From sequence record PX645697.1: a stretch of 64,000 bases of DNA, one strand, 5' to 3'. This stretch comes from a phage. The stretch's first letter is position 1; each line of letters begins with the position of its first letter. Made by a program: the position numbers and the translations under genes. This document shows positions 7,002-64,000 of the stretch, one piece after another. The notes beneath the pieces were generated by a model. The model did no database searches. It was not told the origin of the DNA and saw only the letters and a list, made by a program, of their open reading frames with translations.

Positions 7002-8036
7002 ATGGCATATGGAATATGGACAAGCCCGGTCGGTCCGGGTCCAGCGGCACCTGCTGACATTTACATTGACAGTGGTAGCACTTTCCCTCAACTCAGAAAT
7101 AGAGTCAGTGGGAATTTCTCTTTTAGCGGAAATACCTGTGACTTGCCTATAAGCGGTTGGGATGGTAGCGGTCAGATAGTTGTAGTCCCAACAGGGTCTG
7201 TTGTTTGGGAGAGATACATACCTCCTAATGTAACATCTGATGTGTATTGGCTAACGGATATATCTGTTATTAATAACTCAACCTTCAGAGTTACTATGGA
7301 CTATAACGTAAACGGTTGGGTATTTGATATGGCTTTTAATGTATATCAAATATGGCCTAGAGCTAATAGGAACTATGGAATCACATTCTCCAACTCTGCT
7401 GACTATTTCTCAATCTCTGATTCTGGAGTTGTTGGTCAATGTATTTGGGCTTGGGAAGGTGACATAAATGGCTCTCTTCAAATACCAGATATTGGAGGTT
7501 TTGATATGAGTCGAGCAACTGTCTATGCAAATTGGAGTAACGGCGGAGCAGGGCTACTATACAACCCATCTAATAGGGTTGTTTATGTGTACCAGAACAG
7601 ATCTCATGATAATGGTAACACAAATCAAACAGGGTACATTGGTGGTGTTAGGATTGCCGTATTCTGTGATGGTTCGGGAGTACCAACCCACAATGGAGGT
7701 TTAAATATCTTTTCTCCAAATGGGTCTCAGTGTGTTTTTTCTACATATAGAACCCCTTTTAGTGTTGAGGGATTTATGCCTATGAGTGGTGGTAACACAT
7801 CTTTGGCCTATCCAATGATACCTCTATCTTATGGTGCTGGAGCAATAAGAGGTAAGGCTAGTGGTTGGTATTTTCAACACACAAGATCTCACATGATGAA
7901 TGGCTCTTCTTTTGGTACAGGTTTCGGAAGGATGATTTACTCTTGGAGTAGTCAATATGATTTAGGAGGGGGTGGTGCCCTCGGGTTAAGTATTCCAATA
8001 TTAGATGCTAGAAAGATATTCAGGAGTATACAATAA
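7002..8036 (+). CDS. hypothetical structural protein
   Basis: Track ORF, tightly packed in structural operon; Gly/Ser/Asn-rich. Confidence 0.4.
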   Translation: MAYGIWTSPVGPGPAAPADIYIDSGSTFPQLRNRVSGNFSFSGNTCDLPISGWDGSGQIVVVPTGSVVWERYIPPNVTSDVYWLTDISVINNSTFRVTMDYNVNGWVFDMAFNVYQIWPRANRNYGITFSNSADYFSISDSGVVGQCIWAWEGDINGSLQIPDIGGFDMSRATVYANWSNGGAGLLYNPSNRVVYVYQNRSHDNGNTNQTGYIGGVRIAVFCDGSGVPTHNGGLNIFSPNGSQCVFSTYRTPFSVEGFMPMSGGNTSLAYPMIPLSYGAGAIRGKASGWYFQHTRSHMMNGSSFGTGFGRMIYSWSSQYDLGGGGALGLSIPILDARKIFRSIQ

Positions 8037-10894: not shown

Positions 10895-12550
10895 ATGCAA
10901 CAGACAACTTACGCTCAGGTCAGAAGTCGTGACCCGAGAAATACTTTCTATGGTGTTAATCCGGGAGCGGCTTCGGCCTCTCCTTATATGGCTAGACCGA
11001 CTCAGACAGCAGATATTTCTATGTATCAACGTCCTGCTGTACCTTCATCTCTTGCGGGTCTTGTCTCTCAGGCAGAAGAAGATCAGAATGCTATGGTTAA
11101 TCCGGGATTCCAGCAACGTCTTATGGAACAGCAGAATCAAGGAACTCCTACCAGTCTTCAGGGTATTAATATTGGAGCACCGGCCCCTGTAGCATCTAAC
11201 CCTAACCTATCCACTGATCAAGGTTTACAGGATGCTGGGCTTATGCCTAGTGACCCTCTTCCGGTAACACCTCCTACTAAACCGTTAGAAGCTGGTCCTA
11301 TGGAGTTTACTCCTTCTCAGGTGGAACAGGCACAAGGTGTGATTAACACTCTTGCTCAAGGACAAGACACTGGTGATGGAATGGCTGCTGCTACTCGTGC
11401 TAAAGATCAGGAACGTGTTAACAATGATATCTTGCAAGTTGCGAAAGCTAAAGACCCTTCAGAAGCTTGGAACAAATTACAGAAAGAACCATTCTATCAG
11501 AACTCTAGTTTCTACACAGGTTTGATGGGTGTAGGTCTTTCAATCATGTCAGGTAAGTCTCCTATCGAAGCTTTCCAGATTGGTCAGGGAATGGCTAATC
11601 AAGATGAGACTAAGAAGCAACTGGAAGCTAACCGTGATGCTCTGATTGAACAAGGCTTCTCTCAAGACTCGATCGCAGCTGCTATTGCTAACGGAGACCC
11701 GTCTCTACTGAAGATGAGAGCTGTAGACCCTGCTCAGAAAGAAGCTCTGTATGCTGCTCGTGAAGAACGTCAGAATGCTGAATGGGATAGACGTCAACAG
11801 ATTCAAGAGCAGGCTATGCGTGAACGTGCCGAGGAAACTCGTCGTGCTGCTGAAAAGAGAACTGATATGAACTTTGAACGTCAGAAAGAGTTGATTGGTT
11901 ATCGTGATAGAGTTAAGGCTGAACGTGCTGAACAAGTTGCTCAAAGTTTCAACTTCCCCACGAAAGAAATCCGTAACGCTCAGAATACAGCTGAAGGTAC
12001 TATCGCTAAACAGTGGGCAGAGAAAGGTGGCTTGTTTAACCAGTCTAATAAAGACTTGGACTTGGCTGATAAAGCTGTTAAGGACAAAGACTATCAGACG
12101 GCCCGTTCTGCTTACATGCAGGCTATCATGAACTCCGCAAGGGCTGAAATTGGTTCTACTCGTTCTCTAACTGAAGAAGATTTGGGACATTTTGCAGAAG
12201 ACCCATCAATCTTTATCCGTGTAGGTAACAAGTTTGCTCTGAAGTCTGGGTGGCGTCCTACTGATTCTGCTCTTGCTTATGCTCGTAAACAGGCTAACGT
12301 CGGTCATACCTCTGCTATGAAAGGTGTTGCTGATGCTAAGAGAGATACTATCAACGCTTATGTTGGTTCTGGTATGGATAAGAAGAGAGCTACTGCATTG
12401 GTTAACCGTGCAATTCCTTCTGGCGGTTTCTATGACCCTCTCGGTGTTTTCTCTGATGAAGCAGAAGAGTATGTTGGTGGTGCAGCGACCAATCCTAAAC
12501 TGAATGGTGCTTTATCAGCTGTCGAAGACACTAGCTGGTTCACACAATAA
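10895..12550 (+). CDS. hypothetical virion protein
   Basis: Track ORF in structural operon; charged coiled-coil-like central region. Confidence 0.4.
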   Translation: MQQTTYAQVRSRDPRNTFYGVNPGAASASPYMARPTQTADISMYQRPAVPSSLAGLVSQAEEDQNAMVNPGFQQRLMEQQNQGTPTSLQGINIGAPAPVASNPNLSTDQGLQDAGLMPSDPLPVTPPTKPLEAGPMEFTPSQVEQAQGVINTLAQGQDTGDGMAAATRAKDQERVNNDILQVAKAKDPSEAWNKLQKEPFYQNSSFYTGLMGVGLSIMSGKSPIEAFQIGQGMANQDETKKQLEANRDALIEQGFSQDSIAAAIANGDPSLLKMRAVDPAQKEALYAAREERQNAEWDRRQQIQEQAMRERAEETRRAAEKRTDMNFERQKELIGYRDRVKAERAEQVAQSFNFPTKEIRNAQNTAEGTIAKQWAEKGGLFNQSNKDLDLADKAVKDKDYQTARSAYMQAIMNSARAEIGSTRSLTEEDLGHFAEDPSIFIRVGNKFALKSGWRPTDSALAYARKQANVGHTSAMKGVADAKRDTINAYVGSGMDKKRATALVNRAIPSGGFYDPLGVFSDEAEEYVGGAATNPKLNGALSAVEDTSWFTQ

Positions 12551-12570
12551 GACCTAAGTCCTGCCTTCTA

Positions 12571-12579
12571 TAATGTATA
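12571..12579 (+). promoter_or_regulatory. TAATGTATA motif, candidate phage-specific promoter element
   Basis: Exact 9-mer recurring 35-60 nt upstream of start codons at four other sites; lies 38 nt upstream of the ATG at 12618. Confidence 0.35.
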
Positions 12580-12617: not shown

Positions 12618-15600
12618 ATGGCTAACATTAAACCGTGGGAAGAAGCTTCCAAAGCTCCTGCGTATCTGAATGCCTCTCCGGAGCAGCAAGCTCAAATGAG
12701 AGAACAATATAAGGCAGCAGGTGGCTCTATTCCTGAGGAACAGCCAGTAGCACAACCACAACAAGAAGAACGTGGTGTTATAGGTGAGTTTGCTCAAGGT
12801 GTGTCAAATGCTCTTCAATCTGGTGGTGCAAATATTGCAGCTAGTGCTGCTAAAGGTATTGGTGGTTTAGTTGAGATTGGTGAGAATCTAGCTGGAGCAC
12901 AGACTAGTTATGGTAAGCGTATCCAAGAGAACTCTCAGAACCTTCTGAAAGAACGTATGGATAAGATTGAGGATGGGATTGGCAAAACTGTCGGTCAGTA
13001 TGCTGGCGTTGCTGGTGATATCGGTTTGACAGTTGCTAACCCATTGGCTGCTGCTGCTATCATCGCAGGTCGTGAGACAGGTCGTGCATATGCAGACCAA
13101 ACCCCTGAAGAGGGGGAAGATAAGTCTATTCTAGATGCAGCCTTAGTTGGTGGTGCTAACTACGCGGCTATGAGAATCCTTCCGGGTGCTGTTGGTACAG
13201 CTGAGTCCACACTTGGACGTATTGGTCAGAACGTTGCTACTAACGCAGTGGCTGGTGCTAAGGGCGGGGCTCTTATAGGTGCTGCTGAAGCTCAGAACAA
13301 GTATGGTGATGACAATGATCTAGCTAAGACATTGGAAGGTGTTATCGAAGAAGGAGCTATGGGTGCTGCATTTGGTGGTGCAGTTGGTGGGGTTCATGGT
13401 TTGATTAGCCGTCCGGATTCTGCTGTCTTCAGGAATACTCCAGAGTATGCGAAGACTGATATTGCTGCTGATGATGAACTGATTCGTAGTGCTAAGAATA
13501 TTGATGAGCTGAAAGAGGCTTACTCTAAAGCTGAAACTGCTAACGCTGCTTCTGCTCTGAACCTTCTCGATGAGAATGGATTCCGTATTACAGATGCTGT
13601 TGCTGTAGATTCTCCTGCTGCTCAGCGTATTCTTAATACTGACCAAGCTCGTGCTGAGAAAGCTGCTTCTGTTCAGAAAGAACATTCCAACATTCCTGGC
13701 CTTAATCCTTTAGCTTCTCCTGCTAAAACTCGTGGTAAAGCTTTCGCTGATAATGAGCACAACCAGAAACAGGCTGTTGCTATGAAGGATGCAATGGCTG
13801 ACTACACCAAGGATAATACTAAAACTCTTACAGATGTTCTAGATAACCTAGACCGTGAATTAACATCTCTCCGAGCTTCTGGTGATTTTACCGGTAGTCC
13901 GATTGACATTAAGAACCGTACGCAAGCTGACCGTGATTTCATTGATGCTTACAAGACTTTCTACAATGAAGCAAATCGATTCAAAGCTCGTGATGGGGAA
14001 GACTTTAATAACTTTGTAGAGAAAGCTACTGAACTACAGAAGATGGCTGATAATGTTTCTCCAGAGATGAAGAAAGCTATTGGTGGGTTGAAGAAACTGA
14101 AAGGTATGCCTGAAGGTTTTAATCCTATCCAAGATGCTTACACTCTGAACAATACAGCTAAATTCATGAGCAACCAAGATCGTGGCTGGACTTCCCTGAC
14201 TGATGATGGCTTCCGTGAGGCTTCTTCACCTAGTCTGGTAATGAACACTCTTGGTGCTGCTAAATATGCTCTGAATCGCTTCTCTTCTCAGCGTGCTCGC
14301 TCTCAACGTGTTAAGCAACAAGAATCTAACAGTGAAGCTATCCGCTCTCTAGCTCGTGGTGATTTGGAAGTTGCTCGTGCTAAATCCGCTGCTGATGAAG
14401 CTCGCACTAAGATGGAAGAAGAACCAGCTGTTGATGACATTAATTTTAAGACGCAAAATGATGTGGAAACTGAACCGGTTCGGGAGCCTTCTTCTAGTAC
14501 TGTGACGGGAGAAAATCTTCCTTCTTCTGCTCCTCAAGAAGCTCCTCTTACAGCTCGTGATTTAGTTGCTCAAAGACGTGCTATCCGTCAGGCTGAACAG
14601 CGTCGCGCTGAAGAAGAGGCATTGGCTGCTCAAGAAGCTCCGGTTGAACAGGCTCCACAAGCTGAACCTCTCCCTGCTCGTAATCCTTTAGAGGAGCGTC
14701 GTGTATTAGAGCAGCAACGTGCTCAAGAAGAGGGCCAAAAGGCTTCATCAGAGGATGCATCTTCTGTTACTAAAGAATCTCTCTCTCACTATGCTGAAGA
14801 TGGGATACTTTCTCAAGATTTAAATGGCAACATTGCCCTTCGCCTAAATCAGTTCACCCCGGCTGAGCAACAGTTTTTGCGTAACCATAATTTGGTTGAC
14901 TCAAATGATATGGTCAAAGCTAGTTCTCTAAGACAAGCTGATCCATTACCTACCCGTGCCCCTAAAGCTCCTAAAGAAGAGGTACAGGACGTTAAACCGG
15001 CAAGTGGTGTAGAACGTTTAGCTGCTATGTCTAGTGCTGCTCGTCAGGCTACTAAAGATCGTGCAGAACGCTTTGCTCGTTCTCTGTACTCTAAGGCTGC
15101 TAAGGCTAAAGCTACTGCTGAGAACTTCTTGTCTTACAAGGGTGATCCTAAGGAGTTGATGCGTCGTATTCGTCAGGAAGATAATGCTATCAACACTGAA
15201 CGTCATGAAGAAATGGCTCGTAACCAGCTGGCTTCTCAGCAAGGTATTGCTACTGCTAAGAACAACACTGTACGAACTAACTTTGCTGAATGGGTTAAAG
15301 AACGTGGTCTGCCAGAAGACATTGCTACTAAGGCATTACGTGCTGAAGAGAAAGGTTTAGGTGGGAACGTAACTAACTTGGATAGTCTGAAACGTCGTGC
15401 TGAAAGGTTGTATCAGAAGCAGCGTGAAGATGAGTTTGATAGACTGTACCAACAAGCTCTAGAAGAGAATAAAGCTTTCGATAACAAGAATGCTCCTAAG
15501 CTGGTTGACCAGAAGAAAGAGTTTCAGTCTGAGATTGATACTTTGATTGATGCAGAACCTTTACGTCCTGCTCAGAAAGACGCTATGCGTAAATTGATGA

Positions 15601-19555: not shown

Positions 19556-21041
<1,486 letters not shown>

Positions 21042-21594: not shown

Positions 21595-22341
21595 TTAGAA
21601 TGGGCTATCGTTGTCGTCTTCGTAAGTAGAAGCAGGCTCTTTATCAATCGTAGGGATTGAAGGAGTAGCTTCTTTCTGCTCTGTTTCAGAAGCACGAGTA
21701 ATTTCACGACCAGCCAGAGGCATGTTCTTAGCGTCATTAGCTTGAGTAAGCAGGTTGCGCTGGAACGGGAACATCAGTTGATAGGATGCTACGTTCTCAT
21801 CGGTTTCAGCATACGGTTCGAAGAATACCAGAGGACTACGAGCTTCACCAACTGCTGCACGATATTTAGTTGGGATTGGAGAAATGGTCTTGATGGAGTT
21901 TTTAACTTCACCAGCTTTGTTAGTGTAAGAGTTAACCAGAATGTTAACAGGCTGGCCTAACAGAACATCCTTGAACCAAGACAGATCACCTTTCAGCGCT
22001 TGAATACTTGGGTCAATCATCTTGCAAAGATCAAGAATACCAGAGTTCTTAGCTCGTGGGTTTACATCATAGCTCTTGAACTGGCAAGCCGGACGTGGTT
22101 CTAATGCCTTACCATCGGAATCTTTACCAGTAGCATCAACACCAATCAGCTCGAAAGCTAAATCCATACGGAAAGCCGGACTCTTAGGAGTTACTGCTTT
22201 GGTCTTCGGGTCAATCCAAGGATCACGATTGTGAACACCCAAACCTACTACACGAACAATACGTGCTTCGTATTCACCATCAGGGATTACATCGTAGTTG
22301 GATTTACGGGAAGCAGTTGCGATAGTTGGAATCATAGACAT
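21595..22341 (-). CDS. single-stranded DNA-binding protein candidate (T7 gp2.5-like)
   Basis: Size about 248 aa and acidic C-terminal tail ending in Phe (...YEDDNDSPF), as in gp2.5-type SSBs; own promoter motif and terminator. Confidence 0.4.
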   Translation of the reverse strand: MSMIPTIATASRKSNYDVIPDGEYEARIVRVVGLGVHNRDPWIDPKTKAVTPKSPAFRMDLAFELIGVDATGKDSDGKALEPRPACQFKSYDVNPRAKNSGILDLCKMIDPSIQALKGDLSWFKDVLLGQPVNILVNSYTNKAGEVKNSIKTISPIPTKYRAAVGEARSPLVFFEPYAETDENVASYQLMFPFQRNLLTQANDAKNMPLAGREITRASETEQKEATPSIPTIDKEPASTYEDDNDSPF

Positions 22342-22400
22342 ATTGTAATTTCCTTATTTAATTTGAAAGATTGTTGCTCTCTTTGAGCGGTTATGTATAG

Positions 22401-22409
22401 TATACATTA
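22401..22409 (-). promoter_or_regulatory. TAATGTATA motif (minus strand) upstream of SSB-like gene
   Basis: Exact 9-mer 59 nt upstream of ATG 22341; part of a palindromic TATGTATA-G-TATACATA arrangement. Confidence 0.35.
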
Positions 22410-22472
22410 CGCTTATACCGATAAGAGTACTATATAATATAAGTATCTTTGGTAGTAGATATAACACATTAG

Positions 22473-22481
22473 TAATGTATA
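22473..22481 (+). promoter_or_regulatory. TAATGTATA motif (plus strand) in large intergenic region
   Basis: Exact 9-mer pointing into a 270-bp stretch without ORFs. Confidence 0.25.
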
Positions 22482-22577
22482 TATTGTATAGCTGATAAAG
22501 TTATTGCAGGCTTGTATATTGGGCAATTCACAGAATCCCTTGCAAGTACCGAAGGGCAGGAGCCACCTGCGAGATAA

Positions 22578-22643
22578 AAATAGAGAATTAAGGAATCCTT
22601 GATTTAGGTTGTAGGGACTCCTAGGGACTTTGATTCTCTATTT
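22578..22643. repeat. 11-bp perfect inverted repeat (AAATAGAGAAT / ATTCTCTATTT) flanking a 44-nt loop that contains tandem TAGGGACT copies
   Basis: Read directly from sequence; located in the 416-bp intergenic region 22342-22757. Confidence 0.5.
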
Positions 22644-22757
22644 AAAAGAATATTAATTACTTATTACCTAAATAATTAACTAACTTACTTAAACCAAATT
22701 CAAGAATAATAGATAAAAAGATTATTCCTAAGAAAGCTAAAAAGTAAATAATATAAG

Positions 22758-23006
22758 TTACCATTCAAGTAAACCTTTAAAGTTAGTTTGTTCTACTATC
22801 CTCTGATAACGAAGATTAGAATCAGCTTGTTTCTTTAACATCTCATTATATTGATCTCTGATAGAGTCTTTATGTACTACAGGTTCTTTAAATAATGAGA
22901 TCTTGTTCTTTTCTTCTTTCATCAAAAACCTTCCTAATCTCTTGCAGAGAAACAGCTTTATAATCAATTTGCTCCATTGATGTACAGAAATATCTCCAAT
23001 CATCAA
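22758..23006 (-). CDS. hypothetical protein (5' end uncertain)
   Basis: Track ORF; upstream part overlaps phosphoesterase gene, true start probably internal. Confidence 0.3.
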   Translation of the reverse strand: MMIGDISVHQWSKLIIKLFLCKRLGRFLMKEEKNKISLFKEPVVHKDSIRDQYNEMLKKQADSNLRYQRIVEQTNFKGLLEW

Positions 23007-23391
23007 TTACATGATTATGTGTATGAGCATAAATATTAAACCTTCCTCTCATCTCATCAGTGTGAATAGGAATATGAGTTACCCAAAACTCTTTGTACTT
23101 ATAATCACCAGAGATTCTACGGAAGACTTTCATCATATCAGGGAGAAGTTCTAACCTGTCATGGTTTCCTAAAACTAGATGCTTCTCTCCTTTTACTTCA
23201 GCGATGATATCAAGGGCATACTTTTCAAACACCCAGTCACCAGTAAAGAAGATTTTATCTCGCTTAGTTACATGATCAAATGCAGCTAGAATTGCTTTGT
23301 CATGTTCTTCGATGGTTTTAAATTGCTTACGAAAACTACAGATGTTGCGATGACCTAAGTGACCATCCCCTGCAAAATAAACTTCAGCCAT
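22888..23391 (-). CDS. calcineurin-like metallophosphoesterase
   Basis: GDGHLG ... FFTGDWV ... LVLGNHD ... HTHNH motifs. Confidence 0.6.
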   Translation of the reverse strand: MAEVYFAGDGHLGHRNICSFRKQFKTIEEHDKAILAAFDHVTKRDKIFFTGDWVFEKYALDIIAEVKGEKHLVLGNHDRLELLPDMMKVFRRISGDYKYKEFWVTHIPIHTDEMRGRFNIYAHTHNHVIDDWRYFCTSMEQIDYKAVSLQEIRKVFDERRKEQDLII

Positions 23392-25349: not shown

Positions 25350-27194
25350 TTAGTGCGTATGCATCCAGTTGAGTCCAATCTGGCAATCAGAAGCCAGAGG
25401 ACATTCCATGTTCAAATACTCACCAGCTTTCTTAACACAAAGCTCGGTGTGTTCTTTGAGTTTCTGTACATCGTTACGGTTCACTGAGAACTGGCCCTCG
25501 TCGTGCATGTCAATTACTTTAGCACAACGAACTCCATCTTTCTCAATCCATTTGTTAAGGAACATCATAGCATATTTCATAACAACAGCACCAGCACATT
25601 GCAGGAGAGTGTTAAGGGCTTTATGAACCATAACCTTTCCAGTGGCATCCCGTCTCATTGTAATCTTACGACCATCAACTCCAATCAAGTATCCTTGAGC
25701 AGCCTTCTCTGTCATACGATCAATGAGGATTGCAATACATGGGTTCTCTGCCAAGAATCGTGCTCGCATCACTGAACCTTCGTCAGCCCCACCACCTACA
25801 ATCGAACCAAGCTTAGCATCACCAGCACCATAGTTGAATGCGTAGATAAACGTCTTAGCGTTGTCACGAGTAGGAAGACCAGCAAGTTTCTGGTTATGGG
25901 AGTGGATATCACCTTCAAGAAGAATATCACGATACATAATAGCAGAAGCTAAACCACGTTCTGCCAGAGCTTTCTTAGCTGGATTATTCTCTTCGATTGC
26001 TTCAGCAAGCATATCCCTACATTCTTTAATGAGGTAGTGTGCAAGCATACGCAACTCTAATCCAGAACCATCATACCCTAAGAATACTTCTTTACCAGCG
26101 GGTATGTAATATTTGTAAGCACCTACAGGTTTGTCTTTCTTCCCCGGCTTACCTTTCTCATAAATTACGTTAGTACCTTTTCGTATATAACAACCATCAG
26201 GAACAACGTTAGTAATAACGAAAGGACGAGAGTGATCAACATCTGAGTTATAGTCAGACTCAAACAAACCGCGACACTCATGACCAAACAAACCACGGGA
26301 GGGAATATTAACCACGATACGATGTTTGAATCGAAAAGTCGGCGTAGCGCAGCTGTTAGCTTCTGCCGAAAGTTTACCATCTTCGCGTTCCTTTGCTATG
26401 AGTCCACTGATAAGACCTAGCCTGTGAGCCGCTACAACGCGTCTCTTAAGCAAACTCCCGACACTCCCTAGCTCACCCCCTAACCCTTCTTCAAGAGTCT
26501 CCTCGAGGTTTGTAGGAGCTGTAGGCCACTTGTTTGAGGTAGCTAGTGCTATCTTAATCTCATCAAAAGTGATAGGTCTACGTCGGTTAGGGTTTAAACC
26601 TAAACCAAATACATAAGCCTTCATATAGTTCTTAGTCTTAAACCTAAAATGCTTCTCTAAGAACTTCCTAATATCAGCGTCAACCATCTCGGCTGTCTGC
26701 TTCTGTTTAGCATTACCTCGCATCCAAGCTGAATACCATGCTTGGTATGTTCCATACTTTCGCATATCTTTCTTGATTTCAAAAGTATTCCAAGGCTTCT
26801 TAGATACGTTAAACTCTGGAGGAAGAAAGCCCTCATCCATAAGGGCTTCTTTAACTCGTGCATCTTTCGATGGGTCAAAGTCCACGTATTCAACACAGGT
26901 GAATGCTCCACCAATGTCTTCTCTCTTAAGACCAACTCTATCACAATAGGCTTGAGGCCACTTCTGTAAAGCTCCAGACTTCTTAAATGGCTTCATATAA
27001 GTAGAGCCATCTAATCTCATCTTAGGTAAGAGAGGAATCAGTTCTTTGTCAATATTAACAATAATCTCTTTAAGGAGGTGAACATACCACCGAGCATTTC
27101 TTCGGTTGAAACTCACTCCGTGCTTCGCTTGCTTAGAGATTATATCAGCGACAGTCATCTCTGTCAAAAATGGGAGAGCGTCCGGGTTGCTCAC
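25350..27194 (-). CDS. DNA polymerase, family A, polymerase domain only
   Basis: Motif A GYDGSGLELRMLAHY, motif B RDNAKTFIYAFNYGAGDAKLG, motif C VIDMHDEGQF; no DEDD exonuclease motifs in N-terminal part. Confidence 0.8.
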   Translation of the reverse strand: MSNPDALPFLTEMTVADIISKQAKHGVSFNRRNARWYVHLLKEIIVNIDKELIPLLPKMRLDGSTYMKPFKKSGALQKWPQAYCDRVGLKREDIGGAFTCVEYVDFDPSKDARVKEALMDEGFLPPEFNVSKKPWNTFEIKKDMRKYGTYQAWYSAWMRGNAKQKQTAEMVDADIRKFLEKHFRFKTKNYMKAYVFGLGLNPNRRRPITFDEIKIALATSNKWPTAPTNLEETLEEGLGGELGSVGSLLKRRVVAAHRLGLISGLIAKEREDGKLSAEANSCATPTFRFKHRIVVNIPSRGLFGHECRGLFESDYNSDVDHSRPFVITNVVPDGCYIRKGTNVIYEKGKPGKKDKPVGAYKYYIPAGKEVFLGYDGSGLELRMLAHYLIKECRDMLAEAIEENNPAKKALAERGLASAIMYRDILLEGDIHSHNQKLAGLPTRDNAKTFIYAFNYGAGDAKLGSIVGGGADEGSVMRARFLAENPCIAILIDRMTEKAAQGYLIGVDGRKITMRRDATGKVMVHKALNTLLQCAGAVVMKYAMMFLNKWIEKDGVRCAKVIDMHDEGQFSVNRNDVQKLKEHTELCVKKAGEYLNMECPLASDCQIGLNWMHTH

Positions 27195-28602: not shown

Positions 28603-28611
28603 TATACATTA
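28603..28611 (-). promoter_or_regulatory. TAATGTATA motif (minus strand)
   Basis: Exact 9-mer 36 nt upstream of ATG 28566. Confidence 0.35.
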
Positions 28612-34364: not shown

Positions 34365-34373
34365 ATATACATT
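34365..34373 (-). promoter_or_regulatory. AAATGTATA variant of the recurrent motif
   Basis: One mismatch to TAATGTATA, 35-40 nt upstream of ATG 34326. Confidence 0.3.
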
Positions 34374-34398
34374 TGAGAGTGATCATATCTACTACCAA

Positions 34399-36236: not shown

Positions 36237-37583
36237 TTAGTTATTTGTTTCTACGTCAAAAGAGATTCCACGACCCGCCTCATCGGCAAACCGAACTGTA
36301 CGGGTTTGAGGTTCTAATATTTCAGGGTTGTCAGCAACAAAGCGATCAGCGAGATTCTGGTTGACGGTCTCAGCAAGCTCCTCATGAGAAGGAACATCAA
36401 GACTACCTACCACATCTTGGGAAGAAGCTTCATCAGTCCAGATAACCCGAGCAGGAACAGCAAAACCCTGACCAGAGAGCTGACGTGCACTAACGTTGAA
36501 GCCATTTGGACGACCACGAGAAGGACTAGACATCCATCTCTCCATAGAATCACTTGTGATACCAAGAGCTTCTTCAAAAGATGTTCTACGAGTAGGGCTT
36601 TCTCTTCGTGACTCTTGTGCTCGACGCATTGCAGGGGCTACAAACACCCCTTCAATTGCATTGTGTCGGTTAGGTTCCTCTTCTCGACCAAGCAGATCAC
36701 CACCCGTGTTAGTCGTTAAATTTGTCAACCCCTCAGACCAATACGCATGAATCTGACCAGAACCGTGAAGACTAGACATAATCTGAATCTCTTCATAAGG
36801 GATTCCAAAGAATAGACTCATGTCTCGGTTAACACAATACTGAGCACTTGTTGTATCTTCAATAAGAGAAACCTGACCTAATCCATTAACCAGATGGCTA
36901 ACTGGCTGAGGTGTAGGAAGGTATCGAGTTTGGGCCATATATTGATATGCAACAGATGGAGCTGAGAATCTTAACACTTGTGAATTAGGCCACTTTTTGT
37001 GAACGTATCTGATTTCACGACTAGAAACAACCACAGGACAAGGAGAGGTCATAGCTAAATATCCATGAGGGGTCATGAATAAGTTATCAAGAGTCATCGC
37101 ACCACGGCACATCATAGGAAAATTATCCAACACCTCCTCAATAGAAGTAGGATAGTTAAACATGAATTGAATGCGGGTTCCATTCCACTGAAATTCAATA
37201 ATATCAGTGAATGTTAATTGAGAGTTCCCAGCATAGGATTCGTTTGTAGATTCAGCAAGAAGAGATGAATATTCAATATCTTGTGACTCAAGCCACTCCT
37301 TAACGTTGCTTTCAACCTCTCTTCCAAGATCTTGCCACTGATCATGGCGGACGAAAGTGTTTTGGGTTCTTGGTGTTTGTCCTCTGACAATAAAGATATC
37401 AATGTCATGTGGAGCTATATTGTTAAGGACAGCATCACGAATAGCCCCACCAGTAATGATGGGACAGATACCGTCTGGAATCAAGTTGTTGTTAATCAAC
37501 TGTTCAATGAAGTGACGACCAACAGTGATATCAGGTTGTTGAGCAACCTTATCTTCAATTTGGTTAATCGGGATAACAATCAT
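36237..37583 (-). CDS. Pol-beta-superfamily nucleotidyltransferase (CCA-adding / poly(A)-polymerase-like head) with low-complexity C-terminus
   Basis: ITGGAIRDAVLNNIAPHDIDIFIV matches the GG-x-RD...DxD head motif; start set at ATG 37583 just after exonuclease stop. Confidence 0.4.
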   Translation of the reverse strand: MIVIPINQIEDKVAQQPDITVGRHFIEQLINNNLIPDGICPIITGGAIRDAVLNNIAPHDIDIFIVRGQTPRTQNTFVRHDQWQDLGREVESNVKEWLESQDIEYSSLLAESTNESYAGNSQLTFTDIIEFQWNGTRIQFMFNYPTSIEEVLDNFPMMCRGAMTLDNLFMTPHGYLAMTSPCPVVVSSREIRYVHKKWPNSQVLRFSAPSVAYQYMAQTRYLPTPQPVSHLVNGLGQVSLIEDTTSAQYCVNRDMSLFFGIPYEEIQIMSSLHGSGQIHAYWSEGLTNLTTNTGGDLLGREEEPNRHNAIEGVFVAPAMRRAQESRRESPTRRTSFEEALGITSDSMERWMSSPSRGRPNGFNVSARQLSGQGFAVPARVIWTDEASSQDVVGSLDVPSHEELAETVNQNLADRFVADNPEILEPQTRTVRFADEAGRGISFDVETNN

Positions 37584-53543: not shown

Positions 53544-53642
53544 CTCTCATTCAATTTGGCGCACCGTGGAGGATTCTAACCTCCAACCAATTTCTTAGAA
53601 GGAAACTGCTCTATACAATTGAGCTAACGGCGCTGGATTTGT

Positions 53643-56084: not shown

Positions 56085-56346
56085 TAGCTACTCGCAAGTC
56101 TTCATTAGCACGAGCAAGGCGCAACACTTCGTGGTTGAGGCTCTGAAGACGTTTGTTTCTGTCCTCAACTTGCATAATAAGATCGTTAAGAATCACTTTA
56201 ACTTTCTCATTATACATCTCATCCACTCGGACTAGGGATTTATACATTCTCTCCCAGCTTGCTGCTTTGTTTCTTAGAATAATAAATCCTATAACGCTGA
56301 TAGTTAAACAGCTTACAAAAAGGAATTTATATACTTCTAAAGTCAT
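56050..56346 (-). CDS. membrane protein with N-terminal TM and coiled coil
   Basis: FLFVSCLTISVIGFIIL followed by charged helical region. Confidence 0.35.
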   Translation of the reverse strand: MTLEVYKFLFVSCLTISVIGFIILRNKAASWERMYKSLVRVDEMYNEKVKVILNDLIMQVEDRNKRLQSLNHEVLRLARANEDLRVAIAKQQEINSEG

Positions 56347-63381: not shown

Positions 63382-64000
63382 CTATTTATTTTCTAACTTT
63401 CTCGCATCTCACTGAAAACTAAAGAAATTTAATTTACTAAACTTTCCATACTCAGAGAATCAGCTTACTAGATATTGTTACTTTATAACACTACGGGTAA
63501 CAGACCAACAGACCAGGACGAACGGGGGAGAATACAGCCGCAGGACAGACCACGGGGAAACATAGCAAGATAGTGCGGTAATAATATACCACTTAAATAA
63601 TTAGTTAACTATTAATGTAAACTCATACACATCGAACGTTAAAAGAAAAAGACCAACAGAACGCTGAAAAAAGAAAGTAATAAAAGAAATAATAAACATC
63701 AACTACTATCTTCCACTTAATTAATACATACATCATTATTGCACTCATAATCATTACCATTGAAACTATTTACAATCAAACTATGGGGGAAGTGGGTAGT
63801 AACTGTGGGGTATTATTAGCCTATTCATAGTGCCTTAATCTAATCATTATCAGTGCTAGCCTTTCTCTCACTCTTTAAAGGGGAACTAAATAAACGGGTA
63901 GGTAATGTATTGGGTAGTATACACGGGGGAATAATTACGGGGAGTAGGCACGGGGAAAGGTTGGAACGTTGATAGGGATGTAAAGGCATTGCCAATAGCC

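Follow-up and report, generated by a model that had tools for sequence, protein, structure and literature searches.

In phage phiEco32, six promoters used by the holoenzyme containing the phage sigma factor gp36 have been located upstream of genes 6, 13, 26, 40, 58 and 68 (Lavysh et al. 2022, PMC8948821). They share a single conserved element, tAATGTAtA, and transcription starts 6-8 bp downstream of it (PMC8948821; PMC4331800; PMC12276001); in published accounts these promoters are described as 'single-element'. The six rows of Table S3 in that paper give TAATGTAgA for P6, TAATGTATA for P13, P26, P40 and P58, and aAATGTATA for P68, and promoter counterparts are tabulated for phages NJ01, ECBP2, KBNP1711, SU10 and 172-1 (PMC8948821). 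The same six promoters were found computationally by Guzina and Djordjevic, whose search was limited to the gene-sense strand of intergenic regions (PMC4331800).

P68 is the promoter of the cryo-EM open complex solved in 2025 (PDB 9m7y), in which AATGTA is centred at -11.5. In the N-terminal domain of gp36, residues N95, S91 and S94 read A-14, A-13 and T-12 in duplex DNA, E79 and H80 read G-11, the first unwound base, and W90 and Y83 stack at the fork. The C-terminal domain touches -37G and -34A through R187 and Y186 (PMC12276001). The contacts at -14, -13, -12, -11, -37 and -34 have structural and mutational support, the requirement for those at -37 and -34 having been demonstrated for P68 only (PMC12276001). 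A second phage protein, gp79, inhibits the sigma-70 holoenzyme and co-activates the gp36 holoenzyme: it displaces region 4 of sigma-70, anchors the gp36 C-terminal domain, stimulates P26 and P68 three- to four-fold and blocks sigma-70 (PMC12276001). P26 is transcribed in vitro by the gp36 holoenzyme (PMC12276001). According to the authors of the SU10 study, some of these promoters are possibly used by both holoenzymes. No transcriptome mapped to these phages was found in our literature search.

Two other systems invite comparison. The related phage 7-11 also places its own sigma factor on the host core polymerase and has promoters at similar genome positions. Its gp47-dependent late promoters are, however, bipartite (GTAAtg-N16-aCTA), unlike the single element of the gp36 promoters, its sigma is only 15% identical, and it has neither gp79 nor a middle promoter class (PMC8948821). 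Bacterial ECF sigma factors (group 4) are, like gp36, small two-domain members of the sigma-70 family, and the PDB entry calls gp36 an 'ECF sigma factor'. ECF promoters have two conserved boxes, an AAC-type box at -35 read by region 4.2 and a CGT-type box at -10 read by region 2.4, whereas in gp36 promoters one extended -10-like element dominates and the -35 part is short and variable, which is not a bipartite arrangement.

Window sites with published counterparts

The stretch of DNA analysed here, 64,000 nucleotides in its entirety and referred to as the window, comes from a phiEco32-like Kuravirus that is 94-96% identical to SU10, EcoN5 and others. Its region 10000-24000 matches 99 phage records, nearly all of them from phiEco32-group Escherichia phages, at 94-96% identity. 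The window is collinear with phiEco32 (NC_010324) from ~13.4-14.8 kb to the right end, at 87-97% identity, and because it begins at ~13.4-14.8 kb in phiEco32 numbering, P6 and P13 fall outside it. The last 137 bases (63858-63994) are 92% identical to phiEco32 positions 1-137, so the window crosses the genome terminus or terminal repeat of phiEco32 numbering. A tRNA-Arg gene (anticodon TCT) is present at 53557-53633(-), and phiEco32 likewise has one.

The reading frame at 19935..20582(-), described in the original prediction as an ECF-like sigma factor, is a real phage sigma gene and the orthologue of gp36. The protein is 100% identical to phi32_gp36, counted from the second Met of the ORF, and matches chain F of PDB 9m7y over all 214 residues (E 1e-145). 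All of the gp36 DNA-contact residues (E79, H80, Y83, R84, W90, S91, S94, N95, Y186 and R187) are kept. The 'ECF-like' label is the looser part of the description: the search with Pfam returned only a sub-threshold Sigma70_r2 match (18.3 bits against a cut-off of 24), region 4 was not detected by it, and the promoter is not bipartite. The gene for the gp79 orthologue was located at 40817..41065(-) (tblastn, 100% identity over 82 aa at 40820-41065(-); PDB 9m7y_G, E 1e-51). This protein also gave weak whole-sequence PDB matches to TAL-effector repeat proteins (3ugm_A, E 1.4e-8, with no single stretch passing), a likeness that is probably a compositional or helical-repeat resemblance.

A search of both strands of the window recovered the four exact copies of TAATGTATA named in the original prediction, at 12571-12579(+), 22401-22409(-), 22473-22481(+) and 28603-28611(-), together with a fifth that it had overlooked, at 7337-7345(+). 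A genome-wide motif count had been proposed as a check, and the five copies proved to be above chance: dinucleotide-preserving shuffles of the window gave an expectation of 0.70, and a count of five was not reached in any of 100 shuffles (Poisson P ~8e-4). The one-mismatch variant AAATGTATA also exists, though not at 34365-34373 but one base away, at 34366-34374(-). As a class, one-mismatch variants are not enriched in the window (22 found against 21.2 expected from the shuffles). For this reason AAATGTATA stands out by position, without statistical support, and the motif alone is a poor predictor outside conserved positions. The claim that four of the five sites then listed precede, by 35-60 nt, a start codon with a Shine-Dalgarno sequence was borne out, the distances from the 3' end of the motif being 38 nt (start at 12618), 59 nt (22341), 36 nt (28566) and 39 nt (34326), with a Shine-Dalgarno sequence at each.

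These four sites were matched to phiEco32 promoters, in each case with the motif at -15..-7. The orthologue of the late promoter P26 (12571..12579(+), exact motif) has its phiEco32 counterpart at 26014(+), in the gap between genes 25 and 26; its predicted +1 is 12586 and it would drive the 1541-aa gene that starts at 12618. The orthologue of the middle promoter P40 (22401..22409(-), exact motif; Table S3 of PMC8948821) has a predicted +1 at 22394, with the gene 40 homologue starting downstream at 22341, and its element is kept in all relatives examined. Two further middle promoters follow: the P58 orthologue at 28603..28611(-), assigned by exact motif and position (predicted +1 28596, gene start 28566), and the P68 orthologue at 34366..34374(-), in which AAATGTATA is the same variant as in published P68 (predicted +1 34359, gene start 34326).

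Since the sites map collinearly to P26, P40, P58 and P68, the reading of 12571, 22401, 28603 and 34366 as cognate promoters of the phage sigma was correct, and it is already known: the motif is confirmed, was rightly interpreted and has been published as the phiEco32-type sigma promoter element. For 22473(+) that reading has no published counterpart. Compared with the phiEco32 promoters, the four window sites have the same 9-mer at the same positions, with identical sigma and gp79 and no differences. On the strength of homology to mapped promoters and of identical proteins, the 9-mers at these four sites are very probably the -10-like elements (-15 to -7) of phiEco32-type middle and late promoters. 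The polymerase reading them would be the E. coli core enzyme with gp36 bound and with gp79, a small phage protein, assisting, and transcription would start ~7 nt past the element.

In the first 50 kb of phiEco32, the pattern [TA]AATGTA[TG]A gave eight matches, six of which are the published promoters, at 1677(+), 9101(+), 26014(+), 36632(-), 42937(-) and 46862(-). The seventh is 36704(+); the eighth, 33937(-), falls within gene 35 and, unlike the others, is not conserved in ECBP2 or EP335. The six published sites and the seventh are all located in intergenic gaps, as judged by the phiEco32 annotation, and the promoter sites recur in ECBP2 (Suseptimavirus) and EP335 (Nieuwekanaalvirus). The copy at 7337..7345(+), by comparison, lies inside the gene 21 homologue (7002-8036), where it encodes F-N-V-Y. 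The motif is absent at its phiEco32 counterpart, TTCAACGTATAC; because phiEco32 differs there only synonymously, the window motif arises from synonymous codon choice. It also has neither T at -38 nor A at -34, and is probably a coding-sequence coincidence and not a promoter. Another candidate, AATGTATA at 56241(-), was rejected as a ribosome-binding site with its start codon.

The bases further upstream were also compared. T at -38 and A at -34 are common to all seven phiEco32 sites and, in the window, to P26, P40, P58, P68 and 22473(+), with G-37 in P68 and 22473(+) only. Across the sites, positions -38..-34 reduce to T-R-R-N-A, and only the -15..-7 element is conserved in all of them. At P26, -38..-30 is occupied by TAAGACCTA (12548..12556(+)), a block that the late promoter P13 also has upstream. 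It stands in the same register at P13 and P26 in phiEco32, ECBP2 and EP335, with different flanks (9078(+) and 25991(+) in phiEco32, 9416 and 26266 in the related sequence L042, 9165 and 26293 in L043). The middle promoter P68, whose -38..-30 block is TGGTAGTAG, has TGGTAGTAGATA in common with 22473(+) at these positions. Such blocks could be upstream elements that differ by promoter class and decide between late and middle timing. Another copy of TAAGACCTA adjoins TAATGTTTA at 20646-20663(-), 64 nt upstream of the sigma gene start. The combined sequence, TAAGACCTATAATGTTTA, has a perfect TATAAT and overlaps a near-consensus gp36 element. The SU10 paper mentions a sigma-70 promoter for the sigma gene, and this is probably it.

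Two readings compete with recognition of the motif by gp36. Recurrence by chance in an AT-rich genome is of negligible probability: of the five exact copies, that at 7337 does look accidental, and one-mismatch variants are at chance level, but the excess of five copies over 0.70 expected and the occurrence of the sites at the same positions in three genera refute it, and the wholly intergenic placement of the seven phiEco32 sites also stands against it. It is very unlikely that the motifs are ordinary AT-rich sigma-70 -10-like elements used by the host holoenzyme and not by the phage sigma. TATAAT does overlap the P26 element (cTATAATgt), one of several sites with an overlapping sigma-70-like -10 hexamer, a match of sigma-70 type (TAGATA-18-TATATT) lies across 22473(+), and dual holoenzyme use was proposed in the SU10 paper. 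However, in vitro transcription and cryo-EM place the gp36 holoenzyme on P26 and P68, and gp79 shuts off sigma-70 (PMC12276001). The G at -11, essential for the gp36 holoenzyme, is not part of the sigma-70 -10 hexamer, and sigma-70-like matches in the region numbered three, against 4.5 in shuffles.

The seventh site and its upstream block

The seventh consensus site, outside the published six, is the exact motif at 22473..22481(+), with a predicted +1 at 22488 and its phiEco32 homologue at 36704(+). It is located where 315 bp separate gene 40 (start 22341) from the 35-aa homologue of gene 41 (22657-22764, -), back to back with P40 and in the opposite direction, pointing away from gene 40. Of 27 related sequences, taken from IMG/VR contigs, metagenome contigs and 14 GenBank phages that span three genera, 26 keep the 9-mer unchanged. 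The exception is contig ERZ1034915 NODE-75 (L034 2494-2502, window orientation), which carries TAATATATA, with G-11 changed to A and the downstream element intact. It could represent a sequencing error or a promoter-down phage.

The 14-mer TTGGTAGTAGATAT occupies -39..-26 of P68 (34385..34398(-)) and holds the -37G and -34A contacted by gp36 (PMC12276001). An identical block in the same register was found at -39..-26 of the seventh site (22449..22462(+)), these being the only two copies in the window. Among the relatives, GGTAGTA is kept at -37..-31 of the seventh site and the -30..-16 spacer varies. In sequence, the site lacks nothing expected of a gp36 promoter, and it beats P40 and P58 at the -35 positions.

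Unlike the four window sites assigned above, neither 22473(+) nor 36704(+) has an entry in the published promoter lists compared here, being absent from Table S3 (PMC8948821) and from the lists of PMC4331800. Where promoters are annotated in this gap in GenBank (SU7, 4E8), they are minus-strand predictions only, and a full-text literature search for the motif string returned no further relevant paper. A scan of IMG/VR for GGTAGTA-N15-WAATGTATA was uninformative, with two matches (P68 and the seventh site) in each of five Kuravirus-like contigs and single chance-like matches in the other 75 contigs. In distant relatives whose gp40 is 67-70% identical (L008-L010, L038, L039 and L041), neither the motif nor the downstream element was found and no covariation was added; from L008-L010 TAATGTATA is absent, as it is from phage 7-11.

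The neighbouring P40 element has peculiarities of its own. It lies in a near-perfect palindrome, GTTATGTATA-g-TATACATTAC (window 22390-22410), and a one-mismatch copy, TTATGTATA, faces the opposite way directly downstream of it and is partly kept in relatives. The palindrome may be an operator, or it may affect promoter escape. Between the homologues of P40 and the seventh site, ~120 bp are inserted in L004, L018, L030, L031, L033 and L035, and in the phages with this insert P40 has its own GGTAGTT at -37..-31.

The conserved non-coding stretch at 22488-22645

If active, 22473(+) would fire into a conserved non-coding stretch (22488..22645(+)) that, according to folding, alignment and consensus structure, is predicted to yield a transcript of ~155-160 nt (158-189 nt in relatives). 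The folding z-score of the stretch is -2.4. In 5' to 3' order, a hairpin at 22488-22504, which opens with the predicted +1 (A22488), precedes a middle module that varies; the hairpin GCAGG-AGCCA-CCTGC (22556-22570) comes next, and a long hairpin closes the stretch. The 5' hairpin occurs in the variants ATAGCT/AGTTAT, ATAGTT/AACTAT, ATAGA/TCTAT and AGAGTTA/TAACTCT, in all of which pairing is kept. Covariation was detected at two of its pairs, with seven cells changed on both sides and a score that none of 500 shuffles reached; it is confined to this hairpin, the other helices being invariant. Five sequences have G-U at one pair of the 5' hairpin, where the opposite strand would have a C-A mismatch.

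The middle module (22505-22555) exists in two unrelated forms, of ~45 nt and ~72 nt, the longer with its own hairpin TCTCTCA/TGAGAGA. Their distribution is mosaic among the phages (L004, L006/L013, L014, L018, L030-L035) and independent of the 5'-hairpin variant, which suggests modular exchange. The 90 nt that follow, containing the hairpin GCAGG-AGNCA-CCTGC and the long hairpin, are nearly invariant, with substitutions and indels located in the loops. Within them, the 30-nt block 22562-22591 shows a mean pairwise identity of 0.98, higher than any block of gene 40.

The long hairpin, AAATAGAGAAT...ATTCTCTATTT (22578..22643), was recognised as an inverted repeat that folds, and is invariant in 16 aligned sequences. 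With a loop longer than 8 nt, it escaped a simple terminator scan. On the minus strand T5 follows it, on the plus strand only T3, a weak 3' end, so its clearest role is in ending the upstream minus-strand operon, of which it is probably the terminator. It possibly acts in both directions, stopping the plus-strand transcript too. A direct repeat, TAGGGACT-CC-TAGGGACT, at 22612-22629 is replaced by GAGGACT-CC-TAGGACT in six phages, each copy having lost one G; this paired loss is compatible with a hairpin that has a smaller loop, or with a site that a protein reads twice.

No conserved ORF was found in the stretch, and its plus strand lacks an ATG in 17 of 19 variants. A search of 22000-23200 against Rfam, with E values up to 1, gave no match, and comparison of the stretch with 5,426 E. 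coli genomes found no similarity. Against the rest of the window, the putative RNA showed no complementarity of 12 nt or more, with 11-mers at chance level, and the window holds no second copy of the element beyond the 14-nt -35 block at P68.

Phage promoters and RNAs without an associated gene are represented by the T7 'replication promoters' phiOL and phiOR, the lambda OOP antisense RNA and the phi29 pRNA. The seventh site resembles these in being a phage-specific promoter sequence without an ORF ahead and with a short, predicted structured transcript, and like OOP it lies opposite the 3' end of a convergent operon. Unlike OOP, its RNA would overlap only the 3' UTR and terminator and not coding sequence, barring read-through. 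Furthermore, 22488-22645 shares neither sequence nor Rfam similarity with any of them.

Alternative readings of the seventh site and significance

We tentatively propose, as the likeliest of three readings, that 22473(+) may be an unreported seventh gp36 promoter, kept in Kuravirus, Suseptimavirus and Nieuwekanaalvirus and making a structured non-coding RNA of 155-190 nt. The RNA would open with the 5' hairpin, in a stabilising role, and stop at the long hairpin, which would serve the convergent operon as terminator too. Such an RNA could be an antisense or regulatory RNA, or a replication primer. A rather doubtful alternative holds that the site is inert or architectural, forming one half of a 10-bp inverted repeat with P40 that serves protein binding or polymerase parking and gives no functional RNA. 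The copies at 22473(+) and P40 (GTAATGTATA / TATACATTAC) do form a perfect 10-nt inverted repeat, 61 nt apart; there is no gene downstream on the plus strand, the site is missing from the promoter lists compared (PMC8948821, PMC4331800), and the metagenome contig with TAATATATA has lost the critical G at -11. The spacing of the repeat is not kept, however, given the ~120 bp that separate the two copies further in some phages. An inert site would also not account readily for a -35 block held in the exact P68 register while the spacer drifts, for a hairpin at the predicted +1 whose pairing survives two-sided changes, or for 100 nt of downstream sequence more conserved than gene 40.

T7 promoters act at the primary origin of T7, and ColE1 RNA II at the plasmid origin. 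By analogy, 22473(+) might be a 'replication promoter' whose transcript would prime or activate a replication origin in the gap between genes 40 and 41. The absence of a gene to express would agree with this, as would the order of features: beyond the predicted structured transcript lie the 100 bp with the highest AT content in the region (22650-22749, 18% G+C). The phage also encodes a family A polymerase and a primase-helicase, a replication set resembling that of T7. We nevertheless regard an origin here as unlikely: the AT-rich stretch codes for the 35-aa peptide; it does not occur in ECBP2, Bas88, Paul and others, in which the phosphoesterase gene comes directly after; and apart from one short duplicated AGGGACT, iterons were not found.

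As regards the sites with published counterparts, the analysis recovers, from the raw sequence, promoters of a class already mapped in 2012 and seen by cryo-EM in 2025. Its value lies in annotation, since it defines where the middle and late units of transcription lie in this isolate. If the seventh site fires, the transcription map of phiEco32 is incomplete, and a conserved non-coding RNA or a replication promoter would be controlled by the sigma factor of this phage group. If the proposal made here for 22473(+) is true, a well-studied model phage would have a small RNA driven by its own sigma factor.
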